DNA from: Malacoraja senta
Taxonomy: Eukaryota
NCBI GenBank assembly: GCA_038087875.1
Contig: CM075990.1
Coordinates: 15,502,001-15,562,000 of the forward strand
Direction: 5' to 3'
Length of the DNA stretch: 60,000 bases
Positions 35,197 through 35,281 of the stretch are shown piece after piece; positions within the stretch are counted from its first letter, which is position 1; each line of letters opens with the position of its first letter. Made by a program: the position numbers and the translations under genes. The notes below the pieces were generated by a model. That model ran no database searches. It was given only the letters and a program-made list of their open reading frames with translations, and was not told where the DNA came from.

Positions 35197-35281
35197 CTAC
35201 ATGCATGGAACAGAAAAAGAGAATGGCATGCAGAAAGTGTTCTACTGCAAAAGAGACAGCAGAGCCCCATCAGATACTTAC
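35197..35281 (-). promoter_or_regulatory. 85-nt intron between exon 9 and exon 9alt, with two TGCATG (Rbfox-type) motifs and a CTGAT branch-point-like motif next to the 5' splice site
   Basis: Minus strand: gtaagtatCTGATggggctctgctgtctcttttgcagtagaacactttcTGCATGccattctctttttctgttccaTGCATGtag. The TGCATG motifs are at 35227-35232 and 35200-35205. Confidence 0.6.

Follow-up and report, generated by a model that had tools for sequence, protein, structure and literature searches.

A compact conserved intron between exons 9 and 9alt of skate KCNMA1 as a putative Rbfox-controlled splicing switch

How does a BK channel gene choose between exons 9 and 9alt, and what keeps the two from being joined to each other, where an intron of 85 nt is all that lies between them? 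The question is raised by a 60,000-nt stretch of Malacoraja senta DNA (hereafter the window), which carries part of KCNMA1, the gene for the BK channel alpha subunit, on its minus strand. Exons 8, 10, 11 and 12 were located via translation and tblastn; exon 8, an upstream constitutive exon of 171 nt that encodes part of the pore (49945..50115, minus strand), matches many shark and ray proteins at 98% identity. Exon 9 (35282..35373, minus strand), which encodes the end of S6 and the C-linker, and exon 9alt (35105..35196, minus strand) are each 92 nt long, and both match human Slo1 residues 313–343, which bears out the gene and exon assignment made in the initial annotation. The 9alt peptide is 100% identical to the little skate BK protein AJP74816.1 and is also present in the chain catshark BK protein AWO14627.1. 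Two residues specific to 9alt correspond to R340 and A347 in thorny skate numbering and are presumably the low-conductance residues of Bellono 2017. That work reportedly linked 9alt to the small conductance of the skate electroreceptor BK channel.

The mutually exclusive exon 9/9alt pair is already known from other animals, with the same exons, the same 92-nt length and the same frame-shift class. In human, the pair is supported by more than 10 reads that join exon 9 to 9alt, and an orthologous pair occurs in fly slo (PMC5740500). The alternative exon, e9alt, has also been cloned from mouse cochlea; it exchanges residues of the channel at the inner mouth of the pore and alters gating (PMC11758846). 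The title of Soom 2008 calls it neuronal. What governs the choice in cis is a separate matter. The passages on the pair considered from PMC5740500 and PMC11758846 describe no intronic cis-elements, and nothing on cis-control of the choice was found in the full-text literature, a body of text that leaves most subscription papers outside its coverage. The ASCOT rows concern other KCNMA1 exons, and a chick cochlea paper does not mention the pair.

Some features of the gene model deserve mention in their own right. Exon 12 (14741–14822, minus strand, 82 nt) meets a stop after seven codons, and its remainder matches orthologues in another frame; this is most likely an assembly error in which one base was lost. 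A gap of 200 Ns lies at 13722–13921, and the exons for skate BK residues 445–550, which were not found in the window, probably sit in it. The exon 9 codon at 35297–35299 (minus strand) encodes Cys, where every other listed exon 9 peptide has Ser.

The intron itself runs from 35281 to 35197 on the minus strand and has GT-AG ends. The exon 9 donor (intron nt 1–8; 35274..35281) is followed at once by CTGAT (nt 9–13, with its A at nt 12; 35269..35273). Farther on come a first UGCAUG (motif 1, nt 50–55, or −36 to −31 from the 9alt acceptor; 35227..35232, next base C), the pyrimidine tract of the acceptor (35207..35223), a second UGCAUG (motif 2, nt 77–82, or −9 to −4; 35200..35205, next base U) and the acceptor AG (35197..35198). 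The initial annotation had the intron length, both copies of TGCATG and the CTGAT in their proper places, but left out two AGs, at −50 and −47, that lie between CTGAT and the acceptor; splicing to either of them results in an early stop. Across the window TGCATG is not enriched (47 matches vs 45.7 expected). Two copies together were found in 53 of 59,921 sliding windows on the window's sense strand, every one of them owing to this intron's pair, and, when the intron was shuffled with its dinucleotides kept, in 67 of 20,000 trials, a count that is to be read with the site having been picked after the fact.

Is the intron conserved? A pattern built on the start of 9alt and blind to the intron apart from its AG recovered one locus in metagenome contigs (L001) and none in prokaryote genomes and viral contigs. 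Because both of its exon peptides match bowfin and gar, L001 likely comes from a ray-finned fish; sevengill shark has the same exon 9 peptide, its 9alt being outside the compared set. The L001 intron is 89 nt long and is identical to that of the window in 73 of 91 columns (80%). Both TGCATG copies are exact, the donor is identical over nt 1–8, motif 2 falls within an invariant block of 22 columns, and the pyrimidine tract differs in length. More than 50 nt upstream and more than 30 nt downstream, identity between the two DNAs is 46–48%, vs 49% in shuffles. As many as 24 of 73 six-column windows within the intron are invariant, so the whole intron is constrained and, on this pair of sequences alone, the motifs do not stand out. 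Nt 9–15, where the CTGAT of the window is CAGAT in L001, belong to its most variable stretches.

Similarity between the two loci extends a little way beyond the intron. The 50 nt 5′ of exon 9 (35374–35423, minus strand) are 79% identical and have in common a U-rich run ending in an AG at −31; no yTnAy word occurs within 100 nt upstream of exon 9. The 30 nt 3′ of 9alt (35075–35104, minus strand) are 75% identical, with a common UG-rich block that is possibly a further control element. Exons 9 and 9alt show 90–93% DNA identity, and of their four-fold sites 7 of 11 and 11 of 14, respectively, are the same at both loci, which suggests that they may carry exonic splicing signals. In L001 (486–529, plus strand), the opening codons of 9alt can form pairs with motif 2 and the acceptor AG; the same pairing is weaker in the window. 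Public sequencing runs of four other organisms had 0.46–0.57 of the window's sampled words in common with it, a measure at word level and not at base level, and RNA runs had at most 0.09, which gives no evidence on exon use.

A broader comparison came from proteins that happen to read through the intron off frame. Word-index protein searches with two intron-spanning frames gave no match, but a full HMMER search with a 77-residue frame spanning the intron returned 13 proteins. Seven distinct homologues cover all or nearly all of the intron: P0137, P0138, P0139, P0140, P0143, P0145 and P0147, the last two taken to begin at nt 7 on the evidence of P0143. P0144 and P0146, which begin inside motif 1, were counted for motif 2 only. 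Left out were P0141, P0148 and P0149 (31–43% identity, in several stretches), P0142 (a spliced model without the intron), P0151 (without an anchor), and P0150 and P0152, whose intron readings are the same as those of P0138 and P0143. Read by eye, the exon 9 end in P0137, P0138 and P0140 is of a type that bird, coelacanth and chimaera have; in P0139 it is of fish type. In P0143, P0145 and P0147 the 9alt matches the human peptide, and the P0143 intron, at 97 nt, has the mouse length.

In all seven of these proteins, exactly two sites allow the spelling TGCATG, nt 49–50 and −9. Each frame forces four of the six letters, and the two frames seen at motif 1 force all six between them; codon shuffles gave at least two compatible places in 13–101 of 1,000 trials per homologue. 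For P0140, P0145 and P0147, the matched stretch takes in motif 2 but neither motif 1 nor the hairpin described below, which therefore played no part in how the search picked these proteins. The conservation check proposed in the initial annotation thus comes out in favour of both motifs in L001 and, at the level of compatibility, in seven of seven proteins, a set in which none of the homologues is a confirmed elasmobranch. The intron is a real and deeply conserved element, apparently out to bony fish and mammals.

The homologues also tell how the element is laid out. In every homologue that covers them, motif 1 keeps a distance of 49–53 nt to the exon 9 donor, and motif 2 keeps its place at −9. 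The intron ranges from 85 to 121 nt, and it is solely the pyrimidine tract between the motifs that varies. A placement of motif 1 relative to the acceptor was considered and rejected: measured that way its position runs from −36 to −73, and its distance is tied to the exon 9 donor instead. In these alignments, motif 1 is anchored to the upstream donor and motif 2 to the 9alt acceptor, with a pyrimidine tract that stretches between them. Neither this donor-anchored layout nor the hairpin was part of the initial annotation.

The hairpin, HP1, is predicted between the donor and motif 1. In both DNAs nt 19–26 fold onto nt 34–41 (35241..35263, minus strand, with a 7-nt loop in the window), and the fold would bury the AGs at −50 and −47. 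Seven of its eight pairs have probabilities of 0.65–0.98 in the window across six contexts, and in L001 the stem has 11 pairs, all at 0.98 or above. Between the two DNAs the arms are conserved, the loop measures 7 nt or 10 nt, and a single U-A pair is replaced by U-G; compensatory changes are absent. A common helix of eight pairs was reached in 14 of 2,000 column shuffles. The proteins add to this through degenerate back-translation. P0140 has four forced pairs without a break, including a double change from G-C to A-U; P0143 has three forced pairs without a break and a 6-nt loop; and P0137 and P0138 have two forced pairs without a break. P0139 combines one forced double change from U-A to C-G with one forced broken pair, and P0145 and P0147 have five forced pairs with the outer pair broken. 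One-sided changes are mostly C/U transitions opposite G. When the four changed lineages were combined, 19 of 20,000 codon shuffles reached the HP1 score, although this null also destroys plain sequence conservation. Taken alone, P0139 gives no support (11,674/20,000), free-register hairpin tests on single proteins were not significant (39–463/500), the overall fold of the window intron is no better than that of shuffles (z −0.68), and Rfam gave no matches at E up to 1 over 34900–35310. On this evidence HP1 is likely a real structure.

Two other proposals for the intron fare far worse. One holds that the UGCAUG copies are kept not as protein sites but for base pairing between the two, which would put the 9alt AG out of reach in a second hairpin, HP2. 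An invariant helix of eight pairs is indeed predicted in both isolated introns, and free column shuffling produces it in 9 of 2,000 trials. With the motifs and the AG held fixed, however, 1,502 of 2,000 shuffles still yield eight pairs, so HP2 is a by-product of the motifs; its probability ranges from 0.00 to 1.00 by context, its loop is up to 36 nt longer in homologues, and as a selected structure it was rejected as hardly credible. The other was put forward by the initial annotation: 9alt would branch at the A of CTGAT (nt 12), so close to the upstream donor that splicing from exon 9 to 9alt is blocked sterically. CTGAT is the sole yUnAy word of the intron and its best U2 match by a crude score, HP1 could hide the two AGs between it and the acceptor, L001 has an A at a similar place with an equal crude score, and a shifted U-n-A is possible via a wobble base in each of the five protein homologues tested. 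Against this, CTGAT is found in none of eight homologues (L001 and the seven proteins, the spelling at nt 9–20 having been checked by script in five and by eye in P0145 and P0147), it lies in one of the most variable stretches of the intron, and L001 has no T-n-A outside the donor. The word is also ordinary, a yTnAy at nt 7–30 arising in 9,178 of 20,000 dinucleotide shuffles (46%), and 9-to-9alt joining reads exist in human (PMC5740500). CTGAT was therefore rejected as the donor-proximal branch point, for which the chances are very slim.

Steric exclusion as such fares better than the site once assigned to it. For it to act, a branch consensus should be conserved and should lie no more than about 50 nt from the exon 9 donor, and no such site was found; exclusion via another adenine, at nt 53–58, with the help of HP1, is plausible. 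The sole adenine common to both DNAs between HP1 and −10 is that of motif 1 (35229, minus strand), an inferred branch candidate. It lies 52 and 55 nt from the donor in the two DNAs, or 31 and 25 nt with HP1 folded, and in each it is a poor U2 match that scores 2.0 of 6 where the proximal A scores 3.0. In six of the seven proteins, nt 52–58 hold the A that is the last to be forced ahead of the terminal block; P0139 has none, and the four to nine wobble places in each protein may hide further As. Among the listed entries of a human branch-point table, no row for the intron was found by gene name, gene id or coordinates. Set against the cut-off of under 50 nt used in PMC5740500, the raw donor-to-branch span is borderline, which is in keeping with the human leak.

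The reading preferred here, to which a probability of about 0.5 can be given as a whole, is that this compact conserved intron element is an Rbfox-controlled switch that silences 9alt. The alternative exon would branch at or beside the motif 1 adenine (nt 53–58) and not at CTGAT. Rbfox bound to motif 1 would cover the branch region, and bound to motif 2 it would cover the U2AF zone, with silencing of 9alt as the outcome; the same sites lie downstream of exon 9, an activating position, and exon 9 would be chosen. HP1 would hide the upstream AGs and bring the branch site from about 52 nt to about 25–31 nt from the donor, rendering 9-to-9alt joining inefficient, and nonsense-mediated decay would dispose of the joins that leak through. 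Where Rbfox activity is low, cells would turn to 9alt.

Decay would indeed have something to act on. Inclusion of both exons (92 + 92 nt) leads to a stop at nt 6 of exon 10 (111 nt; 25377..25487, minus strand), and skipping of both leads to a stop at nt 79, so nonsense-mediated decay would clear either error. It is conceivable that this is all there is to exclusivity, with the motifs tuning the ratio of the two exons, the hairpin hiding cryptic AGs, and no steric step whatever. Such an account fits the 92-nt length of both exons, the early stops that follow use of either upstream AG, the more than 10 human joining reads, and a span of 52–55 nt between the donor and the adenine of motif 1, which exceeds the 50-nt cut-off (PMC5740500). 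It leaves unexplained, however, why the distance from donor to motif 1 is fixed when the acceptor side varies by 36 nt, and it is rated doubtful, if still the strongest of the rivals. The preferred switch model differs also from an account in which Rbfox acts in reverse, or other proteins act in its place (MBNL at YGCY, PTB on the pyrimidine tract), and neurons and sensory cells actively turn 9alt on instead of just releasing it. Conserved YGCY words at nt 21 and 54 would suit that account, as would the reports of 9alt in brain (Soom 2008, from its title) and mouse cochlea (PMC11758846) and the negative Rbfox rows in two mouse datasets (PMC5989265, PMC10676425). The UGCAUGY heptamers at −9 and in the branch zone nonetheless fit the repressive position rule (PMC2777236), and in one of the datasets exons 9 and 9alt score 0 for Mbnl, Nova and Ptbp as well (PMC5989265), which leaves the account improbable.

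The evidence on Rbfox itself deserves a closer look. Its position rule, repressive upstream of an exon and activating downstream, is as the initial annotation gave it, and so are the precedents (PMC2777236). The intron offers two copies of UGCAUG near the exon (nt 50 and −9), both of them perfect UGCAUGY heptamers, one at −9 and the other over the candidate branch zone, a layout in agreement with that rule and with the calcitonin and FGFR2 cases (PMC2777236). Rbfox probably binds the intron, and an Rbfox reading of it is plausible. Kcnma1 is said to have three ranked Rbfox exons, which are left unnamed (PMC5577181). In the mouse network of PMC5989265, the rows for exons 9 and 9alt score 0 for Rbfox, and two of eight Kcnma1 events, exons of 174 and 87 nt, score 1; that network models cassette events and is a poor fit to a mutually exclusive pair. 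RBFOX2 eCLIP from mouse beta cells placed none of five Kcnma1 peaks in the intron, on coordinates mapped here and with peaks of 6–14 reads in non-neuronal cells, and a 243-row table of mutually exclusive exons in mutant islets has no Kcnma1 row (PMC10676425). Cassette modelling, non-neuronal cells and shallow CLIP make these mouse negatives weak. A consideration against an Rbfox-repressed 9alt is that the exon is described as neuronal although neurons are Rbfox-rich. 9alt is, moreover, present in many skate gene models and may therefore be more than a rarely used default. For Rbfox in electroreceptors, the literature covered yielded nothing.

Known systems offer partial parallels. Under Fox-2, the first exon of the FGFR2 pair (IIIb) is modestly activated and the second (IIIc) repressed, with UGCAUG upstream of the second exclusive exon, as here (PMC2777236). 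In calcitonin/CGRP exon 4, a UGCAUG near −34, a position much like that of motif 1, blocks SF1 at the branch point, and a second site blocks U2AF65 (PMC2777236). KCNMA1 differs from FGFR2 in that its intron is just 85–121 nt long, its regulation is putative, and 9alt and the 300 nt downstream of it contain no UGCAUG. It differs from calcitonin in that its second site is intronic, at −9, and its first is anchored to the upstream donor, whatever its distance from the acceptor. Exons 2 and 3 of alpha-tropomyosin are kept apart sterically by a branch region near the upstream donor. The KCNMA1 intron resembles theirs in having its candidate branch region near that donor and, after it, a pyrimidine tract that is free of AG and variable in length; in contrast, it has no strong branch consensus, its 52–55 nt span is borderline, a hairpin is predicted in between, and the pair has both a frameshift back-up and human joining reads.

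A more far-reaching version can be stated, which is speculative and on balance unlikely. In jawed vertebrates, the intron would work as a folded ruler that keeps the two exons apart. The exon 9 donor would lie on one side of the fixed hairpin and the branch adenine on the other, and that adenine would double as the A of an Rbfox site; with the hairpin folded, the span would be shorter than the spliceosome can use, and whether Rbfox sits on the branch nucleotide would decide between the exons. Electroreceptors and hair cells would then get a low-conductance BK channel by lowering Rbfox activity, with the gene unchanged.

As it stands, a four-part element of 85 nt with named nucleotides makes exon selection in KCNMA1 testable, and, because the element appears to be kept in mammals, testable in mammalian cells as well. 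If the preferred reading is true, the intron would also mark a site for switching human KCNMA1 between exons 9 and 9alt.
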